64,000 nt of DNA from an archaeon (GTDB lineage Archaea > Iainarchaeota > Iainarchaeia > Iainarchaeales > JAAZKV01). Under the pieces are notes generated by a model. It did not search any database. It was given only the letters and a program-made list of their open reading frames with translations, and was not told the origin of the DNA. The DNA lies in assembly GCA_041659525.1 (NCBI GenBank), contig JBAZYC010000001.1, positions 205,731-269,730 of the forward strand. The letters run 5' to 3'. Shown piece after piece: positions 7,969 through 61,426 of this stretch; within the stretch, counting starts at the first letter, position 1, and each line of letters begins with the position of its first letter. Both the position numbers and the translations under genes were made by a program.

Positions 7969-8029
7969 TTATTGCGGGCAATTAAACTTCATTTCAAACA
8001 ATTATTGTGGGCAATGTTATTGCGGGCAA
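7969..8029. promoter_or_regulatory. Three copies of near-palindromic TTATTG(C/T)GGGCAA, spanning the GP-B stop codon and the region upstream of the pilin-like gene
   Basis: Copies at 7969-7981, 8002-8014 (one C>T change) and 8017-8029. The core TTGCnnGCAA is an inverted repeat. Copy 3 encodes the last codons and stop of GP-B (..FCPQ*). Copies lie 70-130 nt upstream of the 7899 ATG on the same strand. Confidence 0.7.
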
Positions 8030-11000: not shown

Positions 11001-14000
11001 CAGTTATTCCACTTTGTCCAATTGTAGTTAGTTTTGTTTCAGGCCCTACTATTGAATCATTTGCTTTTACTTGGATTTCTCTTATAGCATTAAAGTATTT
11101 TCCAGATGCACTTGGGTTAATTGGCTCTACTTGTACTGTTAGTGTTTCAGGAACGTTTGAGTAAATTGTTCCAGTTACACAACTCTCTACCCCAGAAGTT
11201 GAAGAGTTCATTGCTAACATAGAATTAGTTAGTTCTAATCTTCTTCTTCCTAAATTTCCAGAGTCATTTAATTTAACACAAGAATATACTTCCCCAGTTT
11301 TAATTAAGCAATTGTCTCCGAAGTTTCCTACTAAAGTATCTTGTACTAGATCTACTATTGCATTAGTGAAAGTAGCTTTTGAGAGTGCATCTGCTTTTGC
11401 AATTGAACTATCTACTGTAACTGTAATTATTTTCTTTTCTCCACCAGTTAAACAAATTTGTGCAATTGAATCTACTAGTGCTCCTTGAACTATCTTTACT
11501 TTGTTTCCTGATCCTGCTAGTGTTCTATTATCTGAACCAAATCTTGCTTTAGCAATCTTTGCAGCCATATCTTTTAGTAAAGTATCTGATTCTACTGTAG
11601 TCAACCATGTTCCATAATTTGAAGAGGTAGTTAACCCTGTATCAATTGGATTAAAGTTAGGAATATTTGTAATTGAACTTTGACATTCTCTTGTTACTAA
11701 TTTATTACTTCCTCCTTGAGGAACTGCTTTAATTGATAACACTGGGGTCATTGAATTAATTCCTTCTACTCCTGCTCCAAATGCTCCTGTAATAAATAAT
11801 TTGTAGTATCCGCATCCTTGGAGTACTGGGTCTAAGAATACTGTTTTATCATAAGCCATTGCTCTCATTTTCAAAAGAGTGGTATCTGCTTCGCCTGGAA
11901 CTACAATGAATCCTGTTGCGTCGCTTGTTTCTCTAAATGGAGTGGATGATGCTCCTTCGTTTTCTTCTCCATTCATTTGCTTTTGTAAAATGTATGGAGT
12001 TAGTGCATCATTTTGTAAGTATAGATCAATGTATTCTGGTTGCATTCCTATTTCTTCGAATGTACAAGCCCCAGTGTTTTGACAATCATAAGTTTCTTCT
12101 AAATTTTTAGCAGAGTATCCTTGTGATTGTGCTTTGCTTCTTATTTGTCTAATTATTTTATCCAAGTACTTTGCCGCTTGTACTGCATCACAATAAGCTT
12201 CTCCACAATTAGCATTATCACTAATTTTTGGAATAGTTACTTCTTGAGTTAATTCTTCTCCTACTTTTCCTCCGCAAACTTTTATTTTTACATTATTTGC
12301 TTTAACATGTTCGCTTGCCATGTCAAGTCCTGAGAAAATATTTATTGTGAATGGTTTTGAAATAATTGGAGTTTGACTTACTTCAGTTATTCCATTTACT
12401 ACTACTGAATAATTTTTTCTATTAACATTAGGAATTGCTGTAATTATTGTCATTGGAACATTTATTTGTTCGCCAGGTCCAATTGTTACCATTGGTAGTG
12501 ACATCATTATTGAACTTGAGGTTATTGGGAATCCGATTATTGGATTAACTTGGTTCATTGCTTGTCCTGCTGGAGTTGCTCCCACTATTCTTACTGGTTC
12601 TGCACATTTGTTGGTTACAGAAATTTTCTTTGCAAGTTGTCCGCCTTCGGGAGGGAATAAGTAATCAAAGTAACCTAAGCTATCTGAAACAATATTTGCG
12701 CTTAAGCAATTGTAACCTGAGTAGTACACTATTACCTCAATTAATCCTAGTGTTTGATTTGTGTTTTGGTAGTAATTTACATTAGAAGTTTTTGGATAAT
12801 AATTATTTAGTGGAGTAGTTCCGTCATAGTAATCATTATAGTAACCGTATCTATCATTTTGTCCTGATTGATTATTTAGTTGACCCATTTTTCCAGTTAT
12901 TTGAATTTGTGCTCTTGCTGGTTCGCTTATTTTATTATTTGCTGTAGCAATAACTAATTTTGTAGGAATAATTGCCTGTCCAGGTAAAAGACTTGTAGTT
13001 CCTGAGGGTTCTACACTTATTTTTACATTTGCTCCTGAAGTGTAATCATTATCCACACTAAATCCAATATTATCCACTGGGAATGCAGAAGTATTTGTAA
13101 CAAACAATGGTTGAGCTGCAATTGCTTTTTCTGCTGCACTATTTTGTGTTAACCACAGAGTTATTTGTGGGGGATAAGTTAGTGCTAGTGCTGGATTAAT
13201 TGTTTTTACATTAACACTTACTGTTTTCTTCAAATAATTTGAATCATAAACCACTTCATAAGAGAATATTTGTTCACGTGAATTAGCTCTATCTATTCCG
13301 TTTGTTGCTGTAATTGTAATATTTTTTGTTTCTCCTTGCTGTAAATCAATATCATCAGCTTCTATTCTAATGTAAGAATTCTTTGTTACCGCTCTTATTC
13401 TCTTTGTTAAATTTATTGATTGGTCACAATTATTTGTTACTTCTATTACATCTGAATCAGTTGAGCCTTGTGTTCCAAGTAAATTAATTATTGCTTTGTT
13501 TGGAGTTATTACTAAGCATGAAGCATCAAGTTTTCTATTATAAGTCATGTGAACGGTTGCACTTACTTTTGTTAAGAATTTTCCTTCAACCAGTCCTGAA
13601 ATTGTTATTGTTGAGGTTTCATCAGCAGAATCATCACTCTCTCCAATGTAACTAACAGTTATTTGTACTGATTGTTTTTGATCTTTACCAAGTGCAGAGG
13701 GGGCAATTGCAGTAATTTTGAATTTTCCACTTTCACTTGTTAAAGTATTCTCTCCAACCCCTGTAGAATCTTTTAGTTCTTCTCCATCAGTTGAAACAAA
13801 AATATTTTGTACAGTGAATTCAGAATTGTTTGATAATATTTCTGAAATCATATTTGATTTTGTTCCTAGTGGCATCTTTACTTCAATTGCATCTGTGAAT
13901 GACAAAATATTTTGAGTAGTAATTAGTAATGGAACTGTGTTTGTTGCGTAAGTTGGTACACTTACTTCAGCTGTATAAAGTCCAACTGATAAATCATTTT

Positions 14001-16959
14001 GTATTCTATAATATCCGTTCTTTCCTTTTCCGTCAGTTCCTTCTCCAACTACACTTTTCACTATTTTTCCATCTTTGTTAATTATTTTTACAAGTGCATC
14101 AGTAATTCCTTTTAATCCTTGGTCATTTACTTTTACAGTAAAGTTCTTTCCAGCCATTATTTGTGATTCTGATAATTCAACTAAAAGAGTTTTTTCTTGT
14201 ACTACTTTGAATGCTAAATTTTTCTCAACTGTTGCTACTCCTACTGCTTTTACACTTATTTGTGCATTTCCAATATTATTTGTTTTAAAGTAGAATCTTG
14301 TTTTTTCTTTTCCATTTTTAACTAGTGCTATTGCTGCACTTGCTTTTGATGATCCTGTCCCTTTAGCCTCGGCTTCTCTTACAAAATTAAAATTTCCTGT
14401 TTGGGTAGAAACGAAACTAATTGTATTATTATCAGTGCTTGCTGTTAATTGAACATAATCTGCTTCCATTGCAGTTACTTCTATTTCTAGTGCGTAAACT
14501 TTTTGAGTGAGTGCTTCAAATCCAACTTCTTTAATTAGTTGTTCACTTTCATCAAAGAAATTTGTTGTTAAGCAAATATTATCTTTACAATCAGGAAGGG
14601 CTTCGTATAAAGTTAAGTCCTCTGTATTTGTTGCCGCGTATACTCCAGCTTTTTTGTCGCTATAACTTTTTGTTAATAGTTCTACATCATCAGGTAATCT
14701 GTAGTAATCTTCTCCTACTACTGACCATGCTCTAAAGTGTAATTGTACTTTCCCTTCAGAGAAATCTTCCGCTCTTACTTTTACTTTTACAGTGTATGTT
14801 CCTTGCGGGTCAGTTATTACTCCTTCTATCCATTTACTTTTGTCTCCTTGCATTGTAGTATTTGATCTATCTACTACTTCGTTTCCTGGTACTGGAGAGG
14901 GAGTATAGGTATTTGATTGTGATATTTGTGCGCCTTGGAAACTTAAATCATAAACAGCGAATTTTTCTGATTCTGCGAATGGTACATTATCTGCTCCGCT
15001 TCTAAAGTGTACTCCCCCTTTTGTTGCAGCAAGTGGGTATGCAACACTAAATTTTGCCCAGTAAAATGCACCAGGGGTAAGTCCTTTTACTTCTGTTCCT
15101 TGTTCGTCTTCAAGTCCAATATATTCCATTACTGGAGTTAATGTACTTGCGTCTTTACTATACACTACTACTTCAACGTAATCTTTTCCCTTCACTGTAA
15201 CATTTTCTGTGAAAACATTTCCATCATCAAGAGTTACTTGTACTTCAATTATTTCTCTTTGTCCCGCGTCTAAGAATACTCTTGAATTACTAATTAAATC
15301 ATCAAATAAAAGTGTTCCATCTAGTCCCGATATTCTTGCTTTGCCAGTAACATCTTTTCCATATACATCAATAAATTTCATTTCAAGGACTTGTTCTTTT
15401 TTTGCCATAACTAAGTAAACTTTTTTATCCGCCTCTCCAGCTTTTACTTCTACTACGCTTCTTCCTCCCATTATTTCTGTTGTTCCTATTATTTCGTATG
15501 TTTTTGCGGGTGAAACTGTTGCTGCATAATATCCAGCGAATGTTGTTTGTCCTCCAGCTAATCCGTAGGGTAATTTGTTTCCATCTTTAATTTCAAAGAA
15601 TTCTAAATTCACTCCATTAATTGAAGTGCCTAATGAATCAGAAGTGTAAATATCAAGTCTTGCAGAATTAGTTGCACCTACGCTTTCCATTAATATTTTT
15701 ACCTCTTCAGTAGTGCTAACTAGTACTTGTTCTCTTTTTGGCAGGTAATTTTCTTTTGAAGCAGTAATGTAAATTGTTGCGTTTGAATCAATTCCAGTAA
15801 AATCTGTTCCTGCAATTGTTGAAGTTTGTTCAGCAAAAACTTCTCCATTTAATTTGTAAATTCTAACTATTGCATTATCAATTGCAAATCCTGATTTAGA
15901 ATCAAGTACGCTTACGTGTAATTTTTGTCCACCTTGTTTTAGTACAATATCAACTTTGTCTTCTTGTTTTCTAATTGTAATTCCTGCTCCAGAATCATCT
16001 GAATCATTTGTTAAATATCCTTGTTTTGTTACTACTATTCTTAGTGAAGTTCCTGCTTCTACCTCTCCAATTAATACTCCGTCAGCAGTGTAACCATTTA
16101 GTACTACTAAATTTTTTTGTTTATCATAAACATCTACTTTTGCGTCGCTAATTGTTTTTCCATCTATATCTTTTACATTAATTAATATATTTGCTTTTCC
16201 AACGTAGGATTGGTTTGATGGAATTAGTTCAATTGTTTTTACTTCTTTAGAACTAAATGTTACTTGTTGTTCGTAATTGTTATATCCTTCTGCACTTAAT
16301 TTCAAAAGCATTGTTACGCCTGTAGGAACTCCTGATTTTTTATAAAACCCGTTTGAATCTTCATCAAATTGTAAACTCAAATCTTTTGTAGAGGCAATTA
16401 CTGTTGCTCCATAAATAATTGTTTTTGTTTCATTATCAATTAATCTAATTTTTCCTTCAATTCCCTCGTAGGCTTTGCTAAATGAAACTCTTGGAGCGGT
16501 ATTATCTTTTCCAACTGTAAAATCAAGTGACTTTGGTTGGAAACCATCTTTAGAAGCAGTTAGTAATATTTTTTCTCCATTATAGAGTCCGCGATTTAGT
16601 GCTACTCTGTCCCCATCACTCTTTAATCCATCAAAAAGTACAGCTCCTTTTTCATCTGTTATTACTAGCTTTACGTTTTGCATTGCGCTTCCGTCAGCGT
16701 CTCTTAAAGAAAGAGTTAATTCATTTACATCCGGTCCTTTGTAAGTAAAAAGAAGTGAGAGTATTAGTAATAATAATACTATAATAGCGATTGTAACTAC
16801 AAAACTTGGTATTCCTTTGTTTTCGAAAAAATCAGAGTACTTGTAGACAGGAAGGCCTTTTCCGTCAAGGAAATCTAGTGTGTCAAAGTATTTGTCTTCT
16901 GCTTTTGTATAAATGCCGGCTAATTTTTCAGATATCAAAATACCCCACCAACGCCACAA
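8017..16959 (-). CDS. Giant membrane-anchored surface protein, paralog B (GP-B), ~2973-2980 aa
   Basis: Track ORF starts at TTG 16959. The TTG at 16938 is the more likely start, judged by alignment to GP-A/GP-C and a GGTGGGG-N4 SD-like motif (MISEKLAGIYTKAEDKYF..). The protein has an EDKYF motif plus a TM helix (IPSFVVTIAIIVLLLLILSLLF). A long array of beta-sandwich units follows (e.g. NVKLVITDEKGAVLFDG, ISDAKVDVYDKQKNLVVLNGYTADGV, IDNAIVRIYKLNGEVF). It then has a central block NCGEAYCDAVQAAKYLDKIIRQI shared with the paralogs. A ~770-aa C-terminal extension is unique to this copy. Confidence 0.9.
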   Translation of the reverse strand: MWRWWGILISEKLAGIYTKAEDKYFDTLDFLDGKGLPVYKYSDFFENKGIPSFVVTIAIIVLLLLILSLLFTYKGPDVNELTLSLRDADGSAMQNVKLVITDEKGAVLFDGLKSDGDRVALNRGLYNGEKILLTASKDGFQPKSLDFTVGKDNTAPRVSFSKAYEGIEGKIRLIDNETKTIIYGATVIASTKDLSLQFDEDSNGFYKKSGVPTGVTMLLKLSAEGYNNYEQQVTFSSKEVKTIELIPSNQSYVGKANILINVKDIDGKTISDAKVDVYDKQKNLVVLNGYTADGVLIGEVEAGTSLRIVVTKQGYLTNDSDDSGAGITIRKQEDKVDIVLKQGGQKLHVSVLDSKSGFAIDNAIVRIYKLNGEVFAEQTSTIAGTDFTGIDSNATIYITASKENYLPKREQVLVSTTEEVKILMESVGATNSARLDIYTSDSLGTSINGVNLEFFEIKDGNKLPYGLAGGQTTFAGYYAATVSPAKTYEIIGTTEIMGGRSVVEVKAGEADKKVYLVMAKKEQVLEMKFIDVYGKDVTGKARISGLDGTLLFDDLISNSRVFLDAGQREIIEVQVTLDDGNVFTENVTVKGKDYVEVVVYSKDASTLTPVMEYIGLEDEQGTEVKGLTPGAFYWAKFSVAYPLAATKGGVHFRSGADNVPFAESEKFAVYDLSFQGAQISQSNTYTPSPVPGNEVVDRSNTTMQGDKSKWIEGVITDPQGTYTVKVKVRAEDFSEGKVQLHFRAWSVVGEDYYRLPDDVELLTKSYSDKKAGVYAATNTEDLTLYEALPDCKDNICLTTNFFDESEQLIKEVGFEALTQKVYALEIEVTAMEADYVQLTASTDNNTISFVSTQTGNFNFVREAEAKGTGSSKASAAIALVKNGKEKTRFYFKTNNIGNAQISVKAVGVATVEKNLAFKVVQEKTLLVELSESQIMAGKNFTVKVNDQGLKGITDALVKIINKDGKIVKSVVGEGTDGKGKNGYYRIQNDLSVGLYTAEVSVPTYATNTVPLLITTQNILSFTDAIEVKMPLGTKSNMISEILSNNSEFTVQNIFVSTDGEELKDSTGVGENTLTSESGKFKITAIAPSALGKDQKQSVQITVSYIGESDDSADETSTITISGLVEGKFLTKVSATVHMTYNRKLDASCLVITPNKAIINLLGTQGSTDSDVIEVTNNCDQSINLTKRIRAVTKNSYIRIEADDIDLQQGETKNITITATNGIDRANSREQIFSYEVVYDSNYLKKTVSVNVKTINPALALTYPPQITLWLTQNSAAEKAIAAQPLFVTNTSAFPVDNIGFSVDNDYTSGANVKISVEPSGTTSLLPGQAIIPTKLVIATANNKISEPARAQIQITGKMGQLNNQSGQNDRYGYYNDYYDGTTPLNNYYPKTSNVNYYQNTNQTLGLIEVIVYYSGYNCLSANIVSDSLGYFDYLFPPEGGQLAKKISVTNKCAEPVRIVGATPAGQAMNQVNPIIGFPITSSSIMMSLPMVTIGPGEQINVPMTIITAIPNVNRKNYSVVVNGITEVSQTPIISKPFTINIFSGLDMASEHVKANNVKIKVCGGKVGEELTQEVTIPKISDNANCGEAYCDAVQAAKYLDKIIRQIRSKAQSQGYSAKNLEETYDCQNTGACTFEEIGMQPEYIDLYLQNDALTPYILQKQMNGEENEGASSTPFRETSDATGFIVVPGEADTTLLKMRAMAYDKTVFLDPVLQGCGYYKLFITGAFGAGVEGINSMTPVLSIKAVPQGGSNKLVTRECQSSITNIPNFNPIDTGLTTSSNYGTWLTTVESDTLLKDMAAKIAKARFGSDNRTLAGSGNKVKIVQGALVDSIAQICLTGGEKKIITVTVDSSIAKADALSKATFTNAIVDLVQDTLVGNFGDNCLIKTGEVYSCVKLNDSGNLGRRRLELTNSMLAMNSSTSGVESCVTGTIYSNVPETLTVQVEPINPSASGKYFNAIREIQVKANDSIVGPETKLTTIGQSGITVNANSTTESIIANQNSQADRQAVNDAIPTKNPIGASTSTKTNVAADDSKVEKLSFADVVPALSFADTVPAVPTAEIPNTTNVNSVPSTVSTRNLRTDYYTVSYMGGNLVEEKINYPIELKFNQNSKDYKYYRNIKICALASDPTKDTTASSTDGTPVYVLANGVQFTLGIVALNQSQPESSAKQLITINTGTLHPKDLLQLVLSKSVETGKGYYFTPMWKDGPQTIDLTAYETALVRQGNFDAYSIAGNEQTEKDLSAISAARQGAVKSYAIGCGITSAVCNTALTGGIWGAALSVLTDCGLPLMTVLQSDFAETKGGRVALSGADKFVNGVLDIFESVLGLFGKKSDWNLDWFVPTKIESQSLSGYSLTKSGLAAGEGAFNNAVLNGFRASTGRGFANGINSSNIKTIASDVAEPYVKEFEKILEESFDPKKVSQFDIAYMSTGYKDELVTELTKEMQKNNLIKPATKPTVLQSAKSRLLTPPQYNSVETNIELSIKNNKLIQDPASYVLTKPAGSKLTNFEEMLKARGRLPKNADDLTKLMIPGSPLEKIIKAKLKLDLTLFNTTLKSSFAGYADNLGSLVQPLDHAELRPLIEDLVSQTVPGIKGQDKIDLIDKIHNKIPVKSYMGSQVGKKGLVAGTGYRVDSIINEIKLAAKPEIEVALKSSSSLTTAIDDIAKEISPKVKAGGDLGLADMTKTNNLRSKINSMWSKSGAAALGKGIFCGLVSNAVGMKAYKDEIGDSITKINGDMTKMKESVFVTKGKLYMLRLDSEHNLVVSEIQNVLDLKRPVNGKLPEQKYSKEVGGLLPEQRLLGAYPIVTSRKVAVELMKSTQTDYVDDYASGDPVNVIKTNPYKRMFGEDSKFPEVLFRYTSTSGLDCKTNPNLITINGTTPNAAEPIAIAIATTKLGQREYSPDSVVQEAEGKSTWLKGKLTTALVAISKNSENKVDLTVAKAVFPNTTDQKLLEQFVRDSTLWIAIYSKSRQEVGDFCPQ

Positions 16960-24319: not shown

Positions 24320-27300
24320 TTAAATATTCTTTTTTTTCTTTACTATCTGATTCACTGTTAAAATAATTAGAATCACTAAAATAAAAATAACTCCGAAGCT
24401 TATTGAAGAAGTTGTATCAAGTCCAAAAAATGCTGTCGGACCCAAAGTATTTTCCTTAGGCGCTTCTTTTATTGAAAAAGAAGGAACAACTATTTCTTCC
24501 ACCCCCCTAATTTGTTGATTTGAACTACTATCTAATTGAGCAACTATTGATTTATCAACAAAAACATTTTCATCAGAATCAATTATTTTATTTTGATCCA
24601 CTACTGGAATAGTTACTACAATAGGCGCTCCACTTCTTCCACTTCCCCCACTAGATCCACTTCCAGAACTTCCCCCTGAATTATTTGTAGAAACAGTACT
24701 TATAGCATTACCACAAACTTGACCAGCTGAACAATCAACTTCAGATTGAGTTGAATTCAAAGAAAGAACACTTGGAGATGAATTCACTGACTCAGATGCA
24801 GAATCCAAAGCTAAAGCAGGAACTGAAAGTGGAGCCGATTCTTGTTGCCAATTTAATATAGGATAATTATTACTCACCTCTTTCCAATTATTATTAAAAT
24901 CCCAATCCCTAAAAGTTAATTTTGTTTTCATTTCGCTAGTTGTTTTACCAATTCCGCCCGCACTAATTATTTGTCCTGAAGAGTTAATATCCCAAAAAGA
25001 ATTAGTCACAGTCTTCCAAGGAGAATAACCTACTAATCCTCCAACATTATTTTGTCCAATTACTTTTCCAATTGAGTAAGAATTATTTACTTTAAAATAA
25101 TAATCTAAGTTTCCTACAAGACCACCAACATTACTTGCTCCATTTACATCCCCTGCCGAATAAGAATTATTTATCAAAGAACCATCTAGCGAACCATAAA
25201 CTCCAGAAAATCCAACAAGACCACCAACATTACTTTTCCCAATTACACTTCCGACTGAAGAAGAATTATTAATTTTGCATCCATTAAAAGCACCCATTAA
25301 TCCGCCTACATTATCCCCAGTTCCAACTATCTTTCCAGTTGAAAAAGAATTATTTATTACACATTCCCCATACATAGAATAACCGGCTAATCCTCCAACA
25401 TTATTTGTCCCACTTACGTTTGCAGTTGAGTATGAATCAGAAATTGTCCCTCCATTCCAACCAACAAGACCACCAACTTGATCTATTCCATTTACCTTTC
25501 CAGTTGAATAAGAATTGTTTATAGAACCAACAAAAAATCCAGTAAGCGCACCAACTTGGGTACCCCCAGTTATATTTGAGTTAACTAACCCAACATCCTT
25601 AATTGTAGCTCTGAAAGTATAGACAAACAAACCAACTTGTTTTGCCGAAGGCTTATTTATGTACAAATCAGAAATAATTTTTCTGTTTCCATCAAAAATT
25701 CCAGTAAATCCTTGATTACTATTTCCAATTGGATTAAATCCTGCTCCACCGTTCCAATTCTTTGTTTCAGAACAATTAATATCTTGACCCAAAACATAAT
25801 TTCCACTTAAATTATTAGAAACACTTTGCAAATCAGAACAATTACATAAAACAGAAGCACCATTAACTTTTGAGCTACTTACACAAGTTTGACCACAAAT
25901 AGTTGATTGGTTTGCAAGGAAAGTACACTCTAGTGCATCATCAATACCAATCCTGTTGCCTGATGCTGAATTAGACGTTGCATTAATGCACTCACTCCTA
26001 TAATAATTTGTGCACAAAGTGTTGCCTGTGAAAATATTATTTGAGCTTGTTCTAATCTCAAATGCTCTTTTATTATCATAAATATTATTATTAATAATTT
26101 TATTTCTTTGAGAAGATTCTAAATAAATTCCTCCAGCAAAATACCAAGTTCCAACACGGCCATTGTCATGCAATTGATTTTGTTGTATAAGACTATCATT
26201 TACTCTTGAAAAATAAACTGCCGCACCATAGTCACTTCCATAAACGTCATTATTTGTTATTGTAATAAAATTTGAGTCAGTTACATATATTGATGAATCC
26301 CAAGAAGAGGAAAAATTGTTGTCAATAATAGCAATATTTTTTGATCGCTGAATATTTATTATAATATTCGCTTCACGAGTAACACGACAATTTTTTATAG
26401 TTACATTATTTCGATCTATAATAGTGAATACTGTTCCATTGTACCCAGGAAATATTTGAGTATTTCCACAATCAACTACAACATTATCAGCAACAATATT
26501 CATATTAGTAAAAGCTTGGCTTTGAGGGCAAAATGCTATTGAAGAAGTTACTTGCATATTGCTTATAGGATTAACGCAAGTTGAAGCTGTCGGTGTATTA
26601 GTGCAAGAACTTGAAGTAGTTGCAGGGCTCAAGCAAACATCAGTGGTCAAAAAATTGTTATCGTTGCACTGAGAATCATTAATACATCTAATAGGAGTAT
26701 AACTACAAGCACTAGAAATTGTTCCTGGATTTGTACAAACATCTTGTGTATTAGCATTGCTATCATCACATGCTGCATCATTTAAACAAGCTATTGCTTG
26801 ATGAGTACAGCTACTTGAAATTGTTCCAGGGTTTATGCACTTATCAAAAGTAAAAAAATTATTATCATTACAATTCAAATCAGTGGAACAAGTAGGAGTA
26901 ATACATAAAGCATTATTACAAATTTGACCAACTGAGCAACTTGTTTTCAATTGATTTGCATCCACCGAGGAACAAGCAGCAGAAATAGTTCCAGGATTAT
27001 TACAAGTAAAAGTTCTAAATGTTCCCCAAATATCATTTGTGTTACAAAAAGCATTTCCAACAAAAGCATTAGTTCCACATTGTTCACTAATTGTGCAAGC
27101 AGGAGTCATGCAATTTCCTGCATTACAGATTTGTGGAGAGTCACAAGCAGTTATTGTTGTATTTGAATCACTAGAACTACATACTGAATTGATTGTTCCC
27201 CCATTTGAGCAAATATAAGTTCTATACGTTTGAGTAGAATTATTTCCTAAACAAAAAGCAGTTCCCAAATATCCATCGGCTCCACATTGAACATTACTTG

Positions 27301-28963
27301 AGCAAGTAATTGCAATTGGGGTATTGGTGCAGGAACTCGAAGAAGTACCCGAATTTACACAAACATCCATTGTGAGCGAATTATTATCATTGCATTGTAA
27401 ATCATTTATGCATCTAATAGAAGCATAAGTACAAACACTTGAAGCAGTTCCAGCATTCGCACAAATATCTTGAGTATTTGAATTATTATCATTACATTCA
27501 GAATCTGATGAACAAACTATAATTGGAATATTGTAAAGTACATTTTGTACACTATCAACTTTTGATTTTACCCCAGGAACTTTTTTCAAGAAATATTGAA
27601 AGTCCTTTGAGCCATCTTGGTATTGTAAAGCATTGAATGCTGATAATGCAATATATGATTGGCTCAATGTTTCAAAAATGTTTTTTCCATCTGAAGTATT
27701 TACTCCATTATAAGAAGTTTGATTTGCATAAGGGCTTGTTGTTACAACAAAACCAAAAGGATAAGTTCCTGTGTTAAAATAGTATCCTGCATTATCGTCT
27801 TTTACCATGCTAATCTTTGTCATCAAGATATCAAGAGTTGTTTGTTTCAAATCAGGAAGAACGTTTAGGGGAAGGAAAAATGCGTGTGGGGTGCTATGCG
27901 CTGGTGCAGTTGATGGAACCTGCCCACTTAAATTAGGGGGCAAATAATATCCAACAAATCCTTGTGTCATTGCATCAGAAAATCCAGGATAAGTTACTCC
28001 TAATAGTGTTCCATAAGCAAGTTGAGCCTCAGTCGCTGGAACAAAAGAATCTTTACTATAAGAAGTTCCAATGACTGGTATTCCTGCTAGTGAACGAACT
28101 CCCCAAGTAAACATTGAACTAAACCAAGCAGCTTCTTTGACAGTAATTCCATTCCATGTTGCGCTTGAACGCATTTGTGAACTTATAAGAGTAGTAAATG
28201 TAGATAAATCAGTTGAACCTGAAAGGTATTCAATAACAGCCATAAGCCCGCCTTCATCAGCATAAACATCCCATTTTGAAGCCCCACGTAAACCAGTATT
28301 TGCATTAATAATATGAGCCGCATATTTGTTTGTTCCTTGGGTAAAAATAAATCCATCAAATTTCATTCTTGAATAAATACTTTTAGACAAAGTTGAAAGA
28401 GCTGAATAATTATTGTCTATTGCCCACCCGTCAACAATTACTAATGATTGATAAAACAAACCATTGTCTATTGAAGGAATATCAGGACTTGAATCATGAT
28501 AAGGGAAAACATCCACTCCCGGATAATATGAAGCTGTTACTTTATAATAAGGGTAAAATAAATAATTGTAATTTTGTCCCGCAGTATCTTGCAAAGCTTT
28601 TACCGTGTTTAAAGTAGTTGTTATTTTTGCTAAAGCTGCAGATTTAGTTATTTTTCCTCGTTCAGCAGCAGCAATATACGCTTGAAGTAAATACCCCCAC
28701 TCAGTTGGATTTGAATAACCAAATCTTGACCGATCACCAACCTTGTAAGCACCAACAGGCATACCATAAACAGTAACAGCAGTACTACTCAAAAAGTAAT
28801 CAAAGTGAGTATTCATTATTGCACTCAAATCATTGTATTGTTGAGTACTCAAAGTTGCAGCAAAAGTGCTTGCAGAAAATAAAACTAATAAAAGTAAAAC
28901 TAACAAGAAAGAAAAAAGATGAGTCCTTATTGAAAATGACTTTTGACTAAAACCAAACCCCAT
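24320..28963 (-). CDS. 1547-aa multidomain secreted adhesin-like protein: signal peptide, (alpha/alpha)6 glycosidase-like N-domain, Cys-rich modules, parallel beta-helix (PbH1) repeats, GLUG-motif repeats, Ser/Gly linker, C-terminal TM anchor with Lys tail
   Basis: Signal peptide: MGFGFSQKSFSIRTHLFSFLLVLLLLVLFSASTFAATL. Residues ~60-480 (..NPTEWGYLLQAYIAAAERG.., SIDNG, YADEGG, PGFSDA) resemble putative-glucoamylase/DUF3131-type six-hairpin domains; this assignment is low confidence. Residues 484-796 hold Cys-rich modules. Residues ~845-985 look like a right-handed beta-helix (VTIKNCRV..NIAIIDNNF..ITITNNDVYG..NKIINNNIYDN). Residues ~1085-1345 carry about 8 units of the type NVGGLVG..NNSYSxG, which is the GLUG motif. 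The block ends FWDINSSGQ..GKTTSEMKT..WDFNNNW..YPILNW. The C-terminus is ..GPTAFFGLDTTSSISFGVIFILVILIILTVNQIVKKKKNI. Confidence 0.85.
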   Translation of the reverse strand: MGFGFSQKSFSIRTHLFSFLLVLLLLVLFSASTFAATLSTQQYNDLSAIMNTHFDYFLSSTAVTVYGMPVGAYKVGDRSRFGYSNPTEWGYLLQAYIAAAERGKITKSAALAKITTTLNTVKALQDTAGQNYNYLFYPYYKVTASYYPGVDVFPYHDSSPDIPSIDNGLFYQSLVIVDGWAIDNNYSALSTLSKSIYSRMKFDGFIFTQGTNKYAAHIINANTGLRGASKWDVYADEGGLMAVIEYLSGSTDLSTFTTLISSQMRSSATWNGITVKEAAWFSSMFTWGVRSLAGIPVIGTSYSKDSFVPATEAQLAYGTLLGVTYPGFSDAMTQGFVGYYLPPNLSGQVPSTAPAHSTPHAFFLPLNVLPDLKQTTLDILMTKISMVKDDNAGYYFNTGTYPFGFVVTTSPYANQTSYNGVNTSDGKNIFETLSQSYIALSAFNALQYQDGSKDFQYFLKKVPGVKSKVDSVQNVLYNIPIIVCSSDSECNDNNSNTQDICANAGTASSVCTYASIRCINDLQCNDNNSLTMDVCVNSGTSSSSCTNTPIAITCSSNVQCGADGYLGTAFCLGNNSTQTYRTYICSNGGTINSVCSSSDSNTTITACDSPQICNAGNCMTPACTISEQCGTNAFVGNAFCNTNDIWGTFRTFTCNNPGTISAACSSVDANQLKTSCSVGQICNNALCITPTCSTDLNCNDNNFFTFDKCINPGTISSSCTHQAIACLNDAACDDSNANTQDVCTNPGTISSACSYTPIRCINDSQCNDNNFLTTDVCLSPATTSSSCTNTPTASTCVNPISNMQVTSSIAFCPQSQAFTNMNIVADNVVVDCGNTQIFPGYNGTVFTIIDRNNVTIKNCRVTREANIIINIQRSKNIAIIDNNFSSSWDSSIYVTDSNFITITNNDVYGSDYGAAVYFSRVNDSLIQQNQLHDNGRVGTWYFAGGIYLESSQRNKIINNNIYDNKRAFEIRTSSNNIFTGNTLCTNYYRSECINATSNSASGNRIGIDDALECTFLANQSTICGQTCVSSSKVNGASVLCNCSDLQSVSNNLSGNYVLGQDINCSETKNWNGGAGFNPIGNSNQGFTGIFDGNRKIISDLYINKPSAKQVGLFVYTFRATIKDVGLVNSNITGGTQVGALTGFFVGSINNSYSTGKVNGIDQVGGLVGWNGGTISDSYSTANVSGTNNVGGLAGYSMYGECVINNSFSTGKIVGTGDNVGGLMGAFNGCKINNSSSVGSVIGKSNVGGLVGFSGVYGSLDGSLINNSYSAGDVNGASNVGGLVGNLDYYFKVNNSYSIGKVIGQNNVGGLVGYSPWKTVTNSFWDINSSGQIISAGGIGKTTSEMKTKLTFRDWDFNNNWKEVSNNYPILNWQQESAPLSVPALALDSASESVNSSPSVLSLNSTQSEVDCSAGQVCGNAISTVSTNNSGGSSGSGSSGGSGRSGAPIVVTIPVVDQNKIIDSDENVFVDKSIVAQLDSSSNQQIRGVEEIVVPSFSIKEAPKENTLGPTAFFGLDTTSSISFGVIFILVILIILTVNQIVKKKKNI
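24929..25711 (-). repeat. GLUG-motif repeat array inside the adhesin gene (protein-level repeats)
   Basis: Repeated ..[NQ]VGGL[VAM]G.. units at ~25-30-aa spacing: QVGALTGF, QVGGLVGW, NVGGLAGY, NVGGLMGA, NVGGLVGF, NVGGLVGN, NVGGLVGY. Confidence 0.8.
26576..27514 (-). repeat. Cys-rich module array inside the adhesin gene (protein-level repeats)
   Basis: About six units follow the pattern C-x-N-D-x-x-C-x-D-x-N-x-x-T-x-D-x-C-x-N-x-G-T-x-S-S-x-C (e.g. CINDLQCNDNNSLTMDVCVNSGTSSSSC, CLNDAACDDSNANTQDVCTNPGTISSAC). Two longer units are CSSNVQCGADGYLGTAFC..TYRTYICSNGGTINSVCSS..QICNAGNCMTPAC and CTISEQCGTNAFVGNAFC..TFRTFTCNNPGTISAACSS..QICNNALCITPTC. Confidence 0.8.
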
Positions 28964-28984: not shown

Positions 28985-29021
28985 TATTTAAATATCCTAC
29001 CGTTATACTACTTTATACTAC
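28985..29021. promoter_or_regulatory. Divergent promoter region: palindromic TATA-like box plus tandem 9-nt operator-like repeat upstream of the RHH gene
   Basis: TATTTAAATA (28985-28994) is its own reverse complement and lies 22 nt from the adhesin ATG (28963) and 41 nt from the RHH-gene ATG (29035). TTATACTAC occurs at 29003-29011 and again at 29013-29021 (10-nt period). Confidence 0.5.
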
Positions 29022-29034
29022 CAAGGAATTTTGT

Positions 29035-29904
29035 ATGAAAAATAAGATTTCAATTACTCTTGATGAGAATGTTGTCGAAGGAATAAAAACAATAATTGAT
29101 GGAATCTATATCCGAAATACCTCTCAAGCAGTAGAATATTTACTGAAAAAAACTCTTTCAGGAAACAACAAAGCAATTTTCCTCTGCGGAGGAGGAAGTT
29201 TTAAGCGAACTGAGAACGGGTACTTTAGACCCTGCACCCCTTTTATGGACAGCACCGCAATAGCTCACAACTTGCGATTTCTAAACCTTAACGGGTTTAA
29301 TGAAATAGTAATAGTTGCTCAAGAACCTAATCTTAATGAAATAAAAATCGCGGTTGAAAAAGAAAAAATAGTTGGAATGAATGTAAAATATATTGCAAAT
29401 GCAGAAGATACTCAAGGGTCCATGGATACTCTTCGCATGAGTGGTCTTCTTACTGGAACCACCCTTGTTTGCTTTGGAGATATTCTTTTTTTCGATAGTA
29501 ATCTTCAAAATTTTTGGAAAACTCATCTTTTGTACAAAGGAATTTCTACCCTTTATGTTCAAGCATTCACTAACAAATTAGGTAATGCAGGAGTAGTAAA
29601 TATGGAAGGAAACCAGATCAATAGTTTTGTTCAAAAACCAGGTACTCAGTTTTCATTAATTCATTTCAGTGCGGTTTTCATTACTGAGCCAAGTATTTTG
29701 GATTACAAAGGACACAGTTTAGAATTCGATATTTTTCCACAATTAGCAAAAAAGAAACAACTCATTGGTTACTTGAGTAATAAACCAATTCACCACTTTC
29801 ACACAGAAAAAGAAATCAAAAAATTAGAAACCCAATTAAAGAAACCTCTTCAATCAGAGAGTTCTTCTAACTCCCTTAAAAGAAAAAAGGTGAAACAAAA
29901 ATGA
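29035..29904 (+). CDS. Ribbon-helix-helix (CopG-like) domain fused to a sugar-phosphate nucleotidyltransferase-like domain, paralog 1 (289 aa)
   Basis: The N-terminus MKNKISITLDENVVEGIKTIIDGIYIRNTSQAVEYLLKKTL has an RHH beta-alpha-alpha pattern. The rest is collinear with RmlA/GlmU-type NTP-transferases (AIFLCGG..RPCTPF..IAHNLRFL..GFNEIVIV..GSMDTL..FGDILF..GVVNMEGNQINSFVQKP..EPSILDY..DIFPQLA..QLIGY). The canonical GGxGTRLxPLT loop is degenerate (CGGGSFKRTENGYFRPCTPF). Confidence 0.65.
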   Translation: MKNKISITLDENVVEGIKTIIDGIYIRNTSQAVEYLLKKTLSGNNKAIFLCGGGSFKRTENGYFRPCTPFMDSTAIAHNLRFLNLNGFNEIVIVAQEPNLNEIKIAVEKEKIVGMNVKYIANAEDTQGSMDTLRMSGLLTGTTLVCFGDILFFDSNLQNFWKTHLLYKGISTLYVQAFTNKLGNAGVVNMEGNQINSFVQKPGTQFSLIHFSAVFITEPSILDYKGHSLEFDIFPQLAKKKQLIGYLSNKPIHHFHTEKEIKKLETQLKKPLQSESSSNSLKRKKVKQK

Positions 29905-30716
29905 AAACAAAAATTTCTATTACCCTTGATGAAAACGTTATTGAAGAAATAAAAACAATGGTAGATGGAGTGCACATTAGAAATACTTCCCAAGCAGTAG
30001 AATACATGCTAAAAAAAACTCTTTCAGGAAACAACAAAGCAATTTTCCTCTGCGGAGGAAACATGAAGAAAACTGAGAGTGGTTATTTTAGACCATGCAC
30101 CCCTTTTTTGGGAGTCCCTGTAATAGTTCACAATATTAGATTTTTGAGGGATAATGGTTTTAGAGAAATAATTATACTTGCACAAAAACCAGCACTTATT
30201 GAAATAGAAAAAACAATTAATAGTGCAAAAATTAGTGGGGTAGAAATAAAATATTTAGAAGATCCTTTGAATTCTCAAGGAACAATGGACACTTTAAGAG
30301 AAGTAATTAAACTTGAAGGGACCACCCTCATTGCTTTTGGAGATGTAATCTTTTTTAATAATGATATTCAAAACTTTTGGAAAACCCATTTATTATACAA
30401 AGCAACTGCCACTCTTTATGCCCAAGCATTCATTGAAAAAATTCAGTGGGCAGGAGTAATAAGTATGGAAGGCAATCAAATAAATAGTTTTGTCCAAAAA
30501 CCTGGGAAAGTATTTTCCCTAATTCATTTTGGAGGAGCATTTATAGTTGAACCAAACATTATGGAGTATAAAGGAAACAGTCTTGAGTATGATATTTTTC
30601 CAGTACTTGCAGCAAAAAATCAATTAATTGGTTATATGAGTGAAAAACCAATTCACCACTTTCACACAGAAAAAGAAATAAAAGAACTAGAAACAAAACT
30701 AAAAAAGCCTTCCTGA
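29901..30716 (+). CDS. RHH + nucleotidyltransferase-like fusion, paralog 2 (271 aa)
   Basis: An ATGA start/stop overlap joins it to paralog 1 (29901-29904). It has the same architecture (MKTKISITLDENVIEEIKTMVDGVHIRNTSQAVEYMLKKTL; CGGNMKKTESGYFRPCTPF). Perfect nucleotide identity tracts with paralog 1: 48 nt (29146-29193 = 30012-30059) and 35 nt (29782-29816 = 30645-30679). Confidence 0.65.
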   Translation: MKTKISITLDENVIEEIKTMVDGVHIRNTSQAVEYMLKKTLSGNNKAIFLCGGNMKKTESGYFRPCTPFLGVPVIVHNIRFLRDNGFREIIILAQKPALIEIEKTINSAKISGVEIKYLEDPLNSQGTMDTLREVIKLEGTTLIAFGDVIFFNNDIQNFWKTHLLYKATATLYAQAFIEKIQWAGVISMEGNQINSFVQKPGKVFSLIHFGGAFIVEPNIMEYKGNSLEYDIFPVLAAKNQLIGYMSEKPIHHFHTEKEIKELETKLKKPS

Positions 30717-30830: not shown

Positions 30831-32039
30831 TTAGACTTCATTTACTATACAGCGAACCCCTCCCCCATACTCCAAATTTGACTTTAATGGAACAATAGTG
30901 GAATGAACTTTGATTCCCGCTTGTTCTAAAGCTCTCCTAGTTTTAATTGCTCTTTTTTCAAGAAGTACTTCGTTTTCACCAAGCACTAAGAAATTAGCGG
31001 GGTGAAAAATTATTTCTGAAGAAGGAATTTGGACTATTCTTAATTGCTGTTCACGCACAGCTTGTTGCACTACGCCTTGGTTTTCTTTTAAGAAAAAAGG
31101 ATCAATTAACAAAGTCTTTCCAACTACCCCTAAGAAAAGATCCACATGAGTAGATTTTAAAAATACTTTTGTTTTAAATGCACGACTCAACCCTGGAGAA
31201 TACCGATTTCCTTTTTCTTCTAAGAAATATACTTTATTCCCTTTCCCAATTAATTTTTGGACAGCATAATCCTCTTTTAAGCGAGGATATGCAAAAAATG
31301 CAGTTGAATTAATATCAACTGAGAGTCCCCCCTCCCCAAGAGCGCTAGTAGAATTTGCAACAAATTTTAGTCTTTCTTTTCCAACTTTTTTGTAAATATC
31401 TCTCGCCCAATAATTATTTGCGGGGACAACATCTTTTTGCAAGGGAAATTTCCCGGGATATAGGTCATCAACATAAGGCATCCCAAATCTTAGCATTCTT
31501 TTTACAGGAAATGTCTTTGCATCTTTTCGCAACTTTGGATAAATACTTGTGGGTTCTTCTTTTCCCATTTCAATATATCTTGGTACCACTACTTTAAATC
31601 CAAGTTCGGCTAATTGATGAATTACTCTTACTCTTTCAAGATTTGTCTGAATAGAACTTCTTCGACCATGCACAAGTTCTAATTTAGAATCAAGATAACC
31701 CTTTAATGATTTAGGCAAATGTTCTTTGTCAATAACAAATCCTTGTTGAACGCGAACAATTAATTCACGGGTGTATTTGTTGGCTTGGCAGTGTTTCATT
31801 AGTTGAACAATCGAAGGGGTTCTGGCAGTCGGTGCTCTTCTTCGAGAAAAAAAACTTTCATCAGGAGCAAAATGAGGCATTAAGGCAACAAATTTTATTC
31901 TCCGATCTTTTTTTTCTCTTACCGAACTAGATATTTTTATTAAAGAAGTTTGGGTTTGCGACTTTTTAAAAGAACTAAATATTTTTTTTAACCCCCTTCG
32001 GGTTTTTGCGAAAGAAGGCTTAAACATATAATAATTCAT
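30831..32039 (-). CDS. Guanidino-group-modifying-enzyme superfamily protein (amidinotransferase / arginine deiminase / DDAH fold), 402 aa
   Basis: The C-terminal ..LEYGGGVRCIVNEV matches the catalytic GGG-x-x-C end of this superfamily. Upstream motifs STHVDLF (H-x-D) and FHPANFLVLGENEVLL are consistent with it. The basic N-terminal ~90 aa have no recognisable match. Substrate unknown. Confidence 0.5.
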   Translation of the reverse strand: MNYYMFKPSFAKTRRGLKKIFSSFKKSQTQTSLIKISSSVREKKDRRIKFVALMPHFAPDESFFSRRRAPTARTPSIVQLMKHCQANKYTRELIVRVQQGFVIDKEHLPKSLKGYLDSKLELVHGRRSSIQTNLERVRVIHQLAELGFKVVVPRYIEMGKEEPTSIYPKLRKDAKTFPVKRMLRFGMPYVDDLYPGKFPLQKDVVPANNYWARDIYKKVGKERLKFVANSTSALGEGGLSVDINSTAFFAYPRLKEDYAVQKLIGKGNKVYFLEEKGNRYSPGLSRAFKTKVFLKSTHVDLFLGVVGKTLLIDPFFLKENQGVVQQAVREQQLRIVQIPSSEIIFHPANFLVLGENEVLLEKRAIKTRRALEQAGIKVHSTIVPLKSNLEYGGGVRCIVNEV

Positions 32040-46038: not shown

Positions 46039-49000
46039 TTACTTTACACAGCTTACACTTGAATCATTTATTTTTGTTGAAAGCTTTTTCCCCTCATTTC
46101 CAGCTTTAGCATAAATTGTATCTTCTGGCCACCAAATTAGTTCTCTGTTTCCTAGACTTGAAACGCAAATACTTTTTGCTTCTACCCCTTTGAATGCATT
46201 ATACAAAGAATTAGGAGTGGATGAATTCGATTTGTCATTTGAAACCATTGTATTTATTCCTCCAAGCGGAAGTGGGTTACTCATTCCTTCTAAATCATTT
46301 GTGCTAAATATTTGTCCGTTCTCTGGTTTTACTATACTATAATTTTCACTAACAGGAGAATAAGCTACAGTTTTTAGATAACTTTTTCCACTTACTTGCG
46401 CAGTACTAAGTCCTACCCCATATAATTTTCCAATTCCATAATCAGGAGTTTTTTTGAAGAAAGTAGATAAAGGACTATCTACAAAGTCTGAGCATTCCCC
46501 AACAGAAGATAGTAAGAACATGTTACTCAAATTCGAGCTGAATGGGTTATTATCTTTGTTAATCATGTAAACAAAATCAGTTTCTTTTCCCTCTATTCCA
46601 TTTAATTCAAACAATAAAGGAGTGGCTGTTGTTGGAGAAAAGATTATTTTTGAATTATTATCATTGTAATTTTTTGTATTATAATTGTAAGTGTAATCAA
46701 ATATTTTTCCCCTCATTGATGGGAGTGCATTTAGGAGTGCAAAATTATTTACTTTAGTAAACCCTACTCTTGAAAGTGAATCTTTTTGATTTGATTCTAA
46801 AATTGCTCCCGCCGCATTTGATACTACAAATTCGTCTCCTGAATTCATTATTGATGAACCATATTTTTCGCGGCTTCCAGCATATTTTGTTCCAACTGAA
46901 CCATCAATTGGAGTATAGAACCAAGGACTATACCCATTATTTACCGGATCTAATAAATAGAGATCAACAATTATTTTAGCATTAGGTATTCCGCTTTCAA
47001 ATAATTTTGTATCATCAGCAAAATCAATTACTAATTTTACTCTGTATTTTCCAGCATCAGGGAGAGTCCATTTTAGATTTGGATTCAAAAAATTTGCTTG
47101 TGAACTATAATAGAAATAATCTTTTTCTTCCAGGTATTTCTTCGATCCGCTTACAGGATCAACAAATGAAGGCCCTGCTTTTAGAATTGCTCCAGTATAA
47201 TCATTTACAAAATCATATTGGAAAGCGGTTCCATACCCATCTCTCATTAAGTTAACATTGAAATCTATTATATCAGTCATTTCTTTTGCATTATTTATTT
47301 TTTCTACATCACTAAACCAATAATCCCATTCAGTTGGAGCAGCATCTTCAAAGAAATAATAAATTGCTGGCTTACCATCATATTCTCTTGTAGTCATTGG
47401 CAAGTAACAAATTTCTTCACTATCATTTCCACCAGTATACTCAGTTCCAGTATCAGGATTAATTAGATTTATTCTTACTTTTGTTAAAACTTTTTTTGCA
47501 GGATTCTCCGGGCAATAAGGTGAAACAGTTTGTAAGAAATTTGTTAGTGCCCCAATTTTTTTGCTAATTAAAATACTCATTTGGGTTGCATCAAGGTAAG
47601 GTTCTTCACTACTTCCGCTTCCAACTGCTGCGCTTGTTAGTGAACGGTATGAAGTTGATGCGCTTGAGAGTGATCCAATTCCTTTTACACTATTCCAATC
47701 CCATGAAAGAATTGTTTTTGGTAAAGCACTAGTTCCTGTTGTTCCTCTTAGTAATCCGTTTACACAATCATTTCCTACGAAAGCAACGTAATTATTTCCT
47801 TTCCTTGGTTCTGCATTAAATTTGAAGTGGTACTTTATAGTAGTTGGTTCTACGGCAAAGTCAGGTACATTAAATGGACCAAAAGTTGAATTAGTTATTG
47901 TGGGGTTTGAATGAGTGTGTTTCATTACATTAAATTCTACTAATCCGTAACCATTTTGTCTAATTCCATTTGAAGCAAACACTGCTCCTACTTCTTGGGA
48001 TTCGTAAACTCCAAATACTTGTGCATCAGAGAAATCCCAAACCGCTTTTACTCCATTATTTGAAATAGTAATTTCTTTTCCATCGTGAACCAAATTAATA
48101 ATATAATCAGGCATAGTCATAGTAACTATATTTGCACAATCTTCTTTCAAAAGTGAATCATTTTGTGAAGTAGTTGTTTCTTCATCAGCGAAAAAAATCT
48201 TTTTAGTTGTTTCGATTTGAGGAGCACTAGTTGCTGATCCGCTATTTGAAGTATCAATATCACTACTATCTCTTAGTGGAGAGGAACTTGTCGAGTAAGA
48301 AGTATTTTTTGTAGTGTAAACTCCTCCTTCATAAGCCCCATTAACAAATCCAGTACTAACCGCTGAACCAATTATTCCAATCATTCTTTTTTTGTTATAC
48401 TCTCCATCAAGCGGAACAAATGAATCACTTACTTCAAACGTAGAAGCTTCACTTGAATTCTCTTCTTGTTTAGATAAATTTCCAGCAGCAGTTATAGCAG
48501 GAGTAATACTTGCATTAGCTAAAGTTATTTCATCTTGCAAAGCATAAATCGCATCAATCGCAGAAGTTATTTTAGTAGTAGCGTCAGAAAGTTGAGGAAC
48601 ATAATCAGTAGTCATTTGCTGATAGGTTCTGAAAAGACTATAAAGTTGATTTACCTGTCCAATTAAAGAAATTATATTAGCATATTGGAGAGTTGCTTCA
48701 GATTGCGCAGTTGTAACCGCGGTTTGCGCAGTAACTAATGTACCAACAGCAGCACAACAAGTAGGATCTCCAGCTTCAGGAGTCAAGTCACATGAAGCTT
48801 GTGCCAAAGGCATTGCTGTAACAATAGCTCCACTTGTGGCTTTAAGTCCTGCTTGAATTGATCCAACTGTACCCGCTTCTGGAGCAAGCATTCCTATTAA
48901 ACTCACAATGGAACTTAAAGCTGATATAATAAGATCTGTTTTTGCATTATCATTATCAGTTAATGCAACTGTAATATCATCACTTGAAGTTAGCAATGGA

Positions 49001-61339: not shown

Positions 61340-61426
61340 AGCCTCAGGTGGGATTTGAACTCACGACCGCCGGTTCGTTTGCTTTTATGATACAAAACCG
61401 GTGCTCTACCGCTGAGCTACTGAGGC
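61340..61426 (-). tRNA. tRNA-Thr (UGU) with a 15-nt intron at the canonical 37/38 position; no encoded CCA
   Basis: Hand fold of the minus strand: GCCTCAG-TA-GCTC-AGCGGTA-GAGC-A-CCGGT-TTTGTA[TCATAAAAGCAAACG]A-ACCGG-CGGTC-GTGAG-TTCAAAT-CCCAC-CTGAGGC-T. The T-loop is canonical (TTCAAAT). There is one A:C mismatch in the T-stem. Confidence 0.85.

Follow-up and report, generated by a model that had tools for sequence, protein, structure and literature searches.

Tandem ribbon-helix-helix proteins with a remodelled sugar-nucleotidyltransferase fold, predicted to autoregulate a divergent promoter region in a DPANN archaeon

Do the two adjacent genes at positions 29035 to 30716 of the archaeal DNA analysed here encode enzymes, or has an enzyme fold become the sensory part of a transcription regulator? 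The DNA is a stretch of 64,000 nucleotides (the window) on a 985 kb contig from the 1.06-Mb, 89%-complete genome of a DPANN archaeon; it encodes FttA and a proteasome subunit, which identifies it as archaeal, and has a G+C content of 33%. Each of the two proteins joins a ribbon-helix-helix (RHH) DNA-binding domain to a sugar-1-phosphate nucleotidyltransferase (NTase)-like domain, and an initial reading of the DNA (the original prediction) had favoured ligand sensing over catalysis, or else an altered chemistry. We hold with moderate confidence that the pair are nucleotide- or nucleotide-sugar-sensing RHH autoregulators, which would control the divergent promoter region next to them. The principal features of the locus are:

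29035-29904, forward strand: paralog 1 (289 aa), with the RHH domain at residues 1-45, the NTase-like domain at residues ~46-270 and a Lys-rich tail at residues 272-289.
29848-29901, forward strand: the Lys/Ser-rich C-terminal tail of paralog 1 (residues 272-289, PLQSESSSNSLKRKKVKQK), also found in most orthologs and absent from paralog 2.
29901-30716, forward strand: paralog 2 (271 aa), with RHH and NTase-like domains and without the basic tail; the more divergent copy.
28992-29021, forward strand: predicted operator of three 10-bp-phased direct repeats, ATATCCTACC, GTTATACTAC and TTTATACTAC.
28987-28994, no strand assigned: TATA-box-like octamer TTTAAATA, overlapping the first operator repeat by 3 nt.
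24320-28963, reverse strand: giant surface-protein gene (1547 aa) with a signal/anchor N-terminus, Cys-rich repeats, a β-helix (NosD-like), GLUG motifs and a C-terminal transmembrane anchor.

Both open reading frames (ORFs) of the pair lie on the forward strand where the original prediction had placed them, with the N-termini it had quoted. The stop codon of gene 1 and the start codon of gene 2 share the tetranucleotide ATGA (29901-29904), as had been noticed, and a Shine-Dalgarno-like GGTGA within the end of gene 1 precedes the start of gene 2. The two proteins are 67% identical (72% at the nucleotide level). Across a spacer of 71 bp, gene 1 is divergently transcribed from the 1547-aa gene, the adhesin gene of the earlier reading. 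No match fell at the paralog locus when the window was scanned with Rfam and for tRNAs.

The N-terminal segment had been described as an RHH domain, and this assignment is borne out at the level of the family to which the proteins belong. A profile built from 52 family N-termini matches Escherichia coli NikR (1q5v) with E = 3.9e-10 and P. horikoshii NikR with E = 8.8e-7, as well as an RHH antitoxin (3e-5) and CopG (2e-3); Pfam RHH_1 is matched by 47 of the 52 members (best E = 7.8e-11). In the AlphaFold2 (AF2) model of the window protein, which has an overall predicted local distance difference test score (pLDDT) of 77, helices occupy residues 11-20 and 29-40 behind an unstructured strand segment. 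The sequence thus reads as a KISITLD strand followed by two helices, the second of which starts at RNTSQ. The two paralogs do not differ in this DNA-reading strand or where helix 2 begins, and should therefore recognise one and the same operator. Across the family, residues of the RHH strand fall into SxT, TxT and AxS classes. Dimerization and sequence-specific DNA binding by the paired strands are predicted from these similarities, with indirect support from the conserved repeat element that adjoins the genes. The Lys/Ser-rich tail of paralog 1 could be an additional, non-specific contact to DNA or other nucleic acid.

The remainder of each protein has the full-length sugar-1-phosphate NTase fold that had been proposed. 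Pfam NTP_transferase (PF00483) is matched with 26.3 and 29.0 bits for the two proteins (cutoff 21.2), the nearest solved sequences are GDP-mannose pyrophosphorylases, and the AF2 model superimposes in Foldseek on GDP-mannose, ADP-glucose and dTDP-glucose pyrophosphorylases (E about 1e-14, TM-score 0.6-0.7 over about 230-250 columns), with the GMPPA/GMPPB structures (PDB 7d72) among the top fold matches. The fold also bears on whether the locus could be a toxin-antitoxin (TA) module, that is, an RHH antitoxin fused to or paired with a nucleotidyltransferase toxin. RHH domains and 'nucleotidyltransferases' do co-occur in the TA literature, and some family N-termini weakly match HicB-like or CopG antitoxin models. 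However, the domain here is a sugar-1-phosphate NTP_transferase (GT-A-like) and not of the Pol-β/MNT or DUF1814 type, on which ground the TA module was rejected; moreover, the two genes are paralogs and not a toxin-antitoxin pair, and their orthologs are single genes adjoining sugar operons. We regard a TA module as extremely improbable.

Comparison of the window proteins with the catalytic hallmarks of the fold gives the following picture:

GGxGTRL loop: GGNMKKT and GGGSFKRT at this position (the loops quoted in the original prediction are CGGGSFKRTENGYFRPCTPF and CGGNMKKTESGYFRPCTPF); Gly and Thr have been replaced, with only a basic residue preserved.
PKPL: FRPC, the catalytic Lys being replaced by Arg.
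PLGTAG: QGT, the Gly of GT being kept.
GD: FGD, the Asp being kept.
EKP: QKP, the Lys being kept.
WxDxG: HHFHT, the second Mg-binding Asp being replaced by His and the Gly by His.

With the loop, the PKPL Lys and the second Mg-binding Asp all replaced, the catalytic signature is not intact, and the proteins do not look like ordinary pyrophosphorylases that carry an unrelated leader. Of 160 family members, 113 are missing both the loop and the Mg-binding Asp, yet 152 retain the Asp of GD, 123 the Lys of EKP and 140 the Gly of GT. Conservation therefore extends to the residues holding nucleotide and sugar phosphate, but not to those that handle the triphosphate and second metal. The original prediction had called the loop degenerate. 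The GxGTR signature is indeed lost, but the loop appears remodelled under selection rather than decayed: its basic residue is conserved, and the motif [KR]-T-E ... F-R-P-C is maintained within the subfamily of the window proteins. The ratio dN/dS between the paralogs is 0.23, indicating purifying selection, and the RHH domain is the most constrained part (dN 0.096 vs 0.264). To us the active site looks like one of changed function under selection and not of decay, and the residues replaced suggest that the window proteins are without catalysis.

The same conservation argues against a role of the NTase-like domain as a mere oligomerization scaffold, in which case the proteins would be constitutive repressors or architectural proteins without an effector. 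RHH proteins require higher-order assembly to bind tandem repeats, and throughout the family the loop is either hypervariable or missing. GD, EKP and GT are, however, conserved at 77-95%, beyond the needs of a scaffold, and the low dN/dS points the same way; we consider a scaffold distinctly improbable.

The main rival to a sensor is a trigger enzyme (PutA/BirA/NadR-like), in which the proteins would be active nucleotidyltransferases of altered chemistry or substrate and the RHH domain would add autoregulation only. All six catalytic hallmarks are retained in seven of the 160 family members. Such canonical-loop members (e.g. P0075 and P0111) carry GGxGTRLxP, PKPL, PLGTAG, GD, EKP and WxDxG, and P0075, P0091, P0111, P0120, P0123 and P0124 keep every catalytic motif together with the RHH domain. 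Because this minority combines all motifs with the RHH domain, the ancestor was probably bifunctional, both enzyme and regulator. In the window proteins themselves, the Asp of GD and the Lys of (Q)KP persist and a basic residue stands where the canonical loop has its Arg, and the conservation of their remodelled loop within the subfamily would fit an enzyme too. On the other side, the loss of the Gly-rich loop, the PKPL Lys-to-Arg exchange and the Mg-binding Asp-to-His exchange co-occur, the genome has a separate canonical NTP_transferase, and some relatives in which the whole loop is deleted still keep both the RHH domain and the operator. An active enzyme is, in our judgement, unlikely for the window pair, and we continue to favour sensing.

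How widespread is the fusion? In an exhaustive profile search, matches over the full length from profile position 1 came from at least 150 clusters (50% identity), so the RHH-NTase fusion is a real and sizeable family and not a gene-calling artefact. In species-representative genomes all 21 matches are from DPANN archaea (Woese-, Aenigm-, Nano- and Micrarchaeota). The search that had been suggested among archaeal genomes thus shows a large DPANN family, and the architecture is not peculiar to this locus. Within the genus of the window the fusion is patchy (6 of 21 genomes, 62-93% completeness). Where named in the sources, family members are called NDP-sugar pyrophosphorylase or mannose-1-phosphate guanyltransferase; given the RHH domain and the motif losses, this enzyme-only annotation is probably misleading. 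In the literature we found TA-system or unrelated work but no description of an RHH plus sugar-nucleotidyltransferase architecture, in agreement with the earlier statement that no RHH-NTP-transferase regulator is known to have been characterised. Same-genus genomes G006 (contig C9, L044) and G015 (contig C26, L037) contain a second RHH-NTase paralog, 40-47% identical; upstream of the one at L037 is a variant element of two CCTAC direct repeats followed by an inverted GTAGGA.

The element between the divergent genes is conserved with the family. It was extracted by seed matching and a position weight matrix (PWM), and at a threshold of at least 24 of 30 matching positions it lies upstream of the family gene, on the strand of that gene, at 18 of 21 loci. 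Its family consensus is ATATCTTACC TTTATCCTAC TTTATGCGAT, the repeats being TATCCTAC-like, and an A/T octamer precedes it at the same register in all aligned loci. The distance from the element to the start codon falls into discrete classes of 13, -2 or 33 nt; loci of the 33-nt class have a second TATA box, 20-22 nt ahead of the start codon, as in promoters of leaderless mRNAs. In the whole 1.06-Mb genome the window site is the only one (39.5 bits; the next site scores 7.0 bits and the maximum in shuffled genomes is about 9.7), and it still ranks first when the PWM is derived from relatives of 33-40% identity only (25.5 vs 11.3 bits). The PWM scans accordingly gave no second operator site above background in this genome that would indicate a wider regulon. 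A gene-specific element that occurs once in the genome and accompanies the family through changes of divergent partner has the look of an autoregulator's cognate operator, and we suggest on this comparative evidence that the RHH-NTase proteins bind it. Upstream of the loop-deleted relative L031 are a TATA box, three TTCCTAC repeats at 10-bp spacing and a further TATA box, in this order. In two relatives, at L005 (~5850-6000) and in the upstream region at L014, a single divergent spacer holds two copies of the element, one abutting the sugar operon and one near the regulator gene.

What would such an operator control? The gene at 24320-28963 is the predicted target. Close orthologs of the pair (60-78% identity) are single-copy, the tandem duplication being the unusual part of the window locus, and at five of their six distinct loci the divergent neighbour encodes a homologous giant surface protein, with Cys-rich repeats and a β-helix; some of these giant proteins have a Glycoamylase-like N-terminus. 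The sixth locus (L009) is divergent from a nucleoside phosphorylase. The window gene is homologous to the large genes divergent from the single-copy orthologs in L001 and L003, which have Glycoamylase, NosD and Beta_helix Pfam matches, and the N-terminal domain of its product is 64% identical in genome G009, where it adjoins that genome's regulator. Further out, relatives at 33-40% identity are divergent, at a minimum of 10 loci, from genes for a UDP-glucose/GDP-mannose dehydrogenase, a canonical NTP_transferase and an NAD-dependent epimerase/dehydratase. The loop-deleted L031 is divergent from a DegT aminotransferase, a GT9 glycosyltransferase and an epimerase gene.

These neighbours also bear on the nature of the ligand. 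Cys51, Cys66 and the His-x-His of the window proteins might together make up a new binding site, such as one for a transition metal, in which case the signal would not be a nucleotide-sugar. Nearly every member of the close subfamily has the cysteines of FLCGG and RPC, H253 and H255 are invariant there, HxH stands in place of DxG in about 60 of the 160 members, and the RHH domain resembles most closely that of NikR, a sensor of metal. The cysteines are, however, absent from relatives of 35-40% identity that have the same operator, and the neighbours are sugar-nucleotide and glycan genes, not metal transport genes. A sensor of a metal or some other ligand is improbable on this evidence, and a nucleotide or nucleotide-sugar is the effector we prefer.

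Several observations weigh against a regulatory role of the pair as we propose it. The window sequence alone matches RHH_1 with E = 0.011 (16 bits; cutoff 20.5), and its single-sequence matches to DUF6364 and NikR are also under cutoff. The RHH part of the AF2 monomer model has a pLDDT of <50, which we attribute to an obligate-dimer fold having been modelled as a monomer. In the active site, the conserved basic residue of the loop and the conserved pocket residues are compatible with residual or altered catalysis. The distant loci L023, L024 and L026 are without the element. Finally, UDP-glucose dehydrogenase was not found in the 89%-complete genome of the window itself, so that the ancestral regulatory logic does not carry over directly. 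The only canonical NTP_transferase of this genome lies beside two NAD-dependent epimerase/dehydratase genes (G000:C1:52561-54387), and this canonical NTase/epimerase cluster (C1:52.5-54.4 kb) has no operator element.

A mechanism that would account for these features can be proposed. The two genes would form one operon and encode paralogous one-component transcription regulators, whose NTase fold has lost the triphosphate-handling and catalytic residues and kept those that hold nucleotide and sugar phosphate. RHH dimers would bind cooperatively to the three 10-bp repeats at 28992-29021; as KISITLD is identical in both copies, the dimers may be homo- or heteromeric. The repeats abut and partly overlap a TATA box that would be common to both divergent promoters. 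With a standard archaeal TATA position of about -30 to -23, the leftward transcription start site would be at about 28964, giving a leaderless mRNA of the giant gene, and standard promoter geometry would place the rightward start at about 29017, inside repeat 3. Occupancy of the repeats would block TBP, TFB and RNA polymerase and so repress both the operon itself and the giant surface-protein gene. A nucleotide-sugar or related nucleotide, once bound in the former active site, would alter the geometry of the oligomer and its affinity for DNA. DNA binding, the sign of regulation and the identity of the effector are all drawn here from sequence comparison. A precedent for the sensory step is GMPPA, a non-catalytic NTP_transferase paralog that senses an NDP-sugar by binding GDP-mannose (PMC11228364).

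The arrangement resembles several known systems in part. NikR (PDB 1q5v, 2hzv, 2bj1) has an RHH domain of very similar sequence (RVTITLDDDLLETLD...NRSEAIRDILR, compared with KISITLDENVIEEIK...NTSQAVEYMLK in the window) and shares the one-component logic predicted for the window proteins, with the RHH domain followed by a C-terminal ligand-binding or oligomerization domain and an operator in the promoter. The C-terminal domain of NikR is, however, ACT-like, binds Ni and tetramerises, whereas the window proteins have an NTase fold; NikR binds an inverted repeat whose halves are separated by 16 bp, and the predicted operator of the window consists of three 10-bp direct repeats; and the NikR model TIGR02793 scores 12.1 bits on the window protein (cutoff 175), the RHH part alone matching. 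PutA carries an N-terminal RHH domain on proline-catabolic enzyme domains and controls a divergent promoter region that includes its own gene. It is like the RHH-NTase family in the N-terminal fusion to an enzyme fold, and the canonical-loop members may work in its manner. Unlike the window proteins, which are without the catalytic hallmarks, PutA has active, unrelated PRODH/P5CDH domains and a redox/membrane-association switch. RHH dimers of MetJ (metboxes), the omega repressor (heptads), Arc/Mnt and CopG bind cooperatively to short, promoter-overlapping repeats spaced by about one helical turn or less. These repressors have no enzyme-derived domain, and the repeat sequence, the 10-bp phasing and the archaeal TATA context are specific to the family described here.

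From the enzyme side, RmlA, the N-domain of GlmU, ST0452 and HddC share the fold and the GD, EKP and GT motifs with the window proteins, which differ from them in lacking GxGTR, in having Arg for the PKPL Lys and His for the Mg-binding Asp, and in the added RHH domain. A parallel for loss of activity is GMPPA, a paralog of the GDP-mannose pyrophosphorylase GMPPB (and also plant KONJAC and eIF2B γ/ε), where the NTP_transferase fold serves as a sensor or regulator, catalysis having been lost in GMPPA (PMC11228364). GMPPA nevertheless acts differently, regulating an enzyme allosterically by protein-protein contact and having no DNA-binding domain; its C-terminal left-handed β-helix is absent from the window proteins. 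The joining of a DNA-binding domain to an enzyme-derived sensor is already known (NikR, PutA, BirA, NadR), and what would be new here is an NTase-fold sensor in an RHH regulator.

How have the two copies evolved side by side? The original prediction had pointed out two perfectly identical stretches, which are exact:

29146-29193 and 30012-30059, forward strand: 48-nt tract covering the RHH-NTase linker and first strand (KKTLSGNNKAIFLCGG), a probable gene-conversion tract.
29782-29816 and 30645-30679, forward strand: 35-nt tract covering KPIHHFHTEKEI, the remodelled WxDxG site, a probable gene-conversion tract.

The dS between the paralogs is about 1.0. In a test that shuffled synonymous codons between alignment columns sharing an amino-acid pair (20,000 trials), the longest identical run had a mean of 19 nt and a 95th percentile of 26 nt, with P(≥49) = 5e-5, and a second run of at least 35 nt occurred in none of the 20,000 permutations, which rules out amino-acid conservation with codon bias as the cause. 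Ortholog pairs of similar divergence have longest runs of 14-28 nt and show synonymous differences inside these very tracts, so that nucleotide-level constraint across the family is ruled out as well. Short-tract gene conversion between the tandem copies, one of the two causes that had been suggested, is thus supported by both comparisons and is the best explanation of the tracts. In a maximum-likelihood tree, copy 1 nests with the single-copy orthologs and copy 2 lies at the base of the subfamily (support 85/82); the pair are therefore not recent duplicates, or else copy 2 has accelerated. The copies differ in the loop of the pocket and in the Lys-rich tail, which only copy 1 has.

We tentatively extend the proposal beyond this locus, at a confidence that falls short of probable. 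The RHH-NTase proteins may be unrecognised one-component transcription factors present across DPANN archaea, which passed from bifunctional enzyme-repressors to nucleotide-sugar sensors and which would couple NDP-sugar status to genes for surface glycans and proteins through a TATA-adjacent triple-repeat operator. The gene-converting pair of the window would then be heteromeric sensors that integrate two ligands at a single operator and through it control a giant surface protein for host interaction. The genomes of DPANN archaea are tiny and encode very few recognisable transcription factors, and to our knowledge almost nothing has been reported on the regulation of those surface proteins and glycans that are presumed to serve in attachment to hosts. 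For this family a regulator, its target genes and an operator with one site per genome are all predicted, so that purified protein and 70 bp of DNA would suffice to test regulation in uncultivated archaea in vitro. If the proposal is true, these would be the first transcription factors built on a sugar-nucleotidyltransferase fold. The family would also offer a graded series of an enzyme becoming a sensor: members that add a DNA-binding domain to an intact enzyme, members whose pocket is remodelled, and members whose loop is deleted. Mis-annotation of RHH-NTase proteins as enzymes would, conversely, inflate the glycan-biosynthetic capacity inferred for DPANN genomes.

Elsewhere the window is rich in very large, probably surface-exposed proteins. 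Four more giant ORFs (1750-2980 aa) are all on the reverse strand, at 3-6254, 8017-16959, 46039-51291 and 53293-59826, and the operator element is absent at all four. Downstream of the pair and convergent with it, a 402-aa protein is encoded at 30831-32039 (reverse strand), with a weak C-terminal amidinotransferase/arginine-deiminase-like match (E about 1e-4, just below Pfam cutoffs). An 87-nt tRNA lies at 61340-61426 on the reverse strand (59 bits with the Rfam tRNA model), which ARAGORN calls tRNA-Asp with anticodon 'atc'; its length points to an intron, which may have misled the anticodon call.

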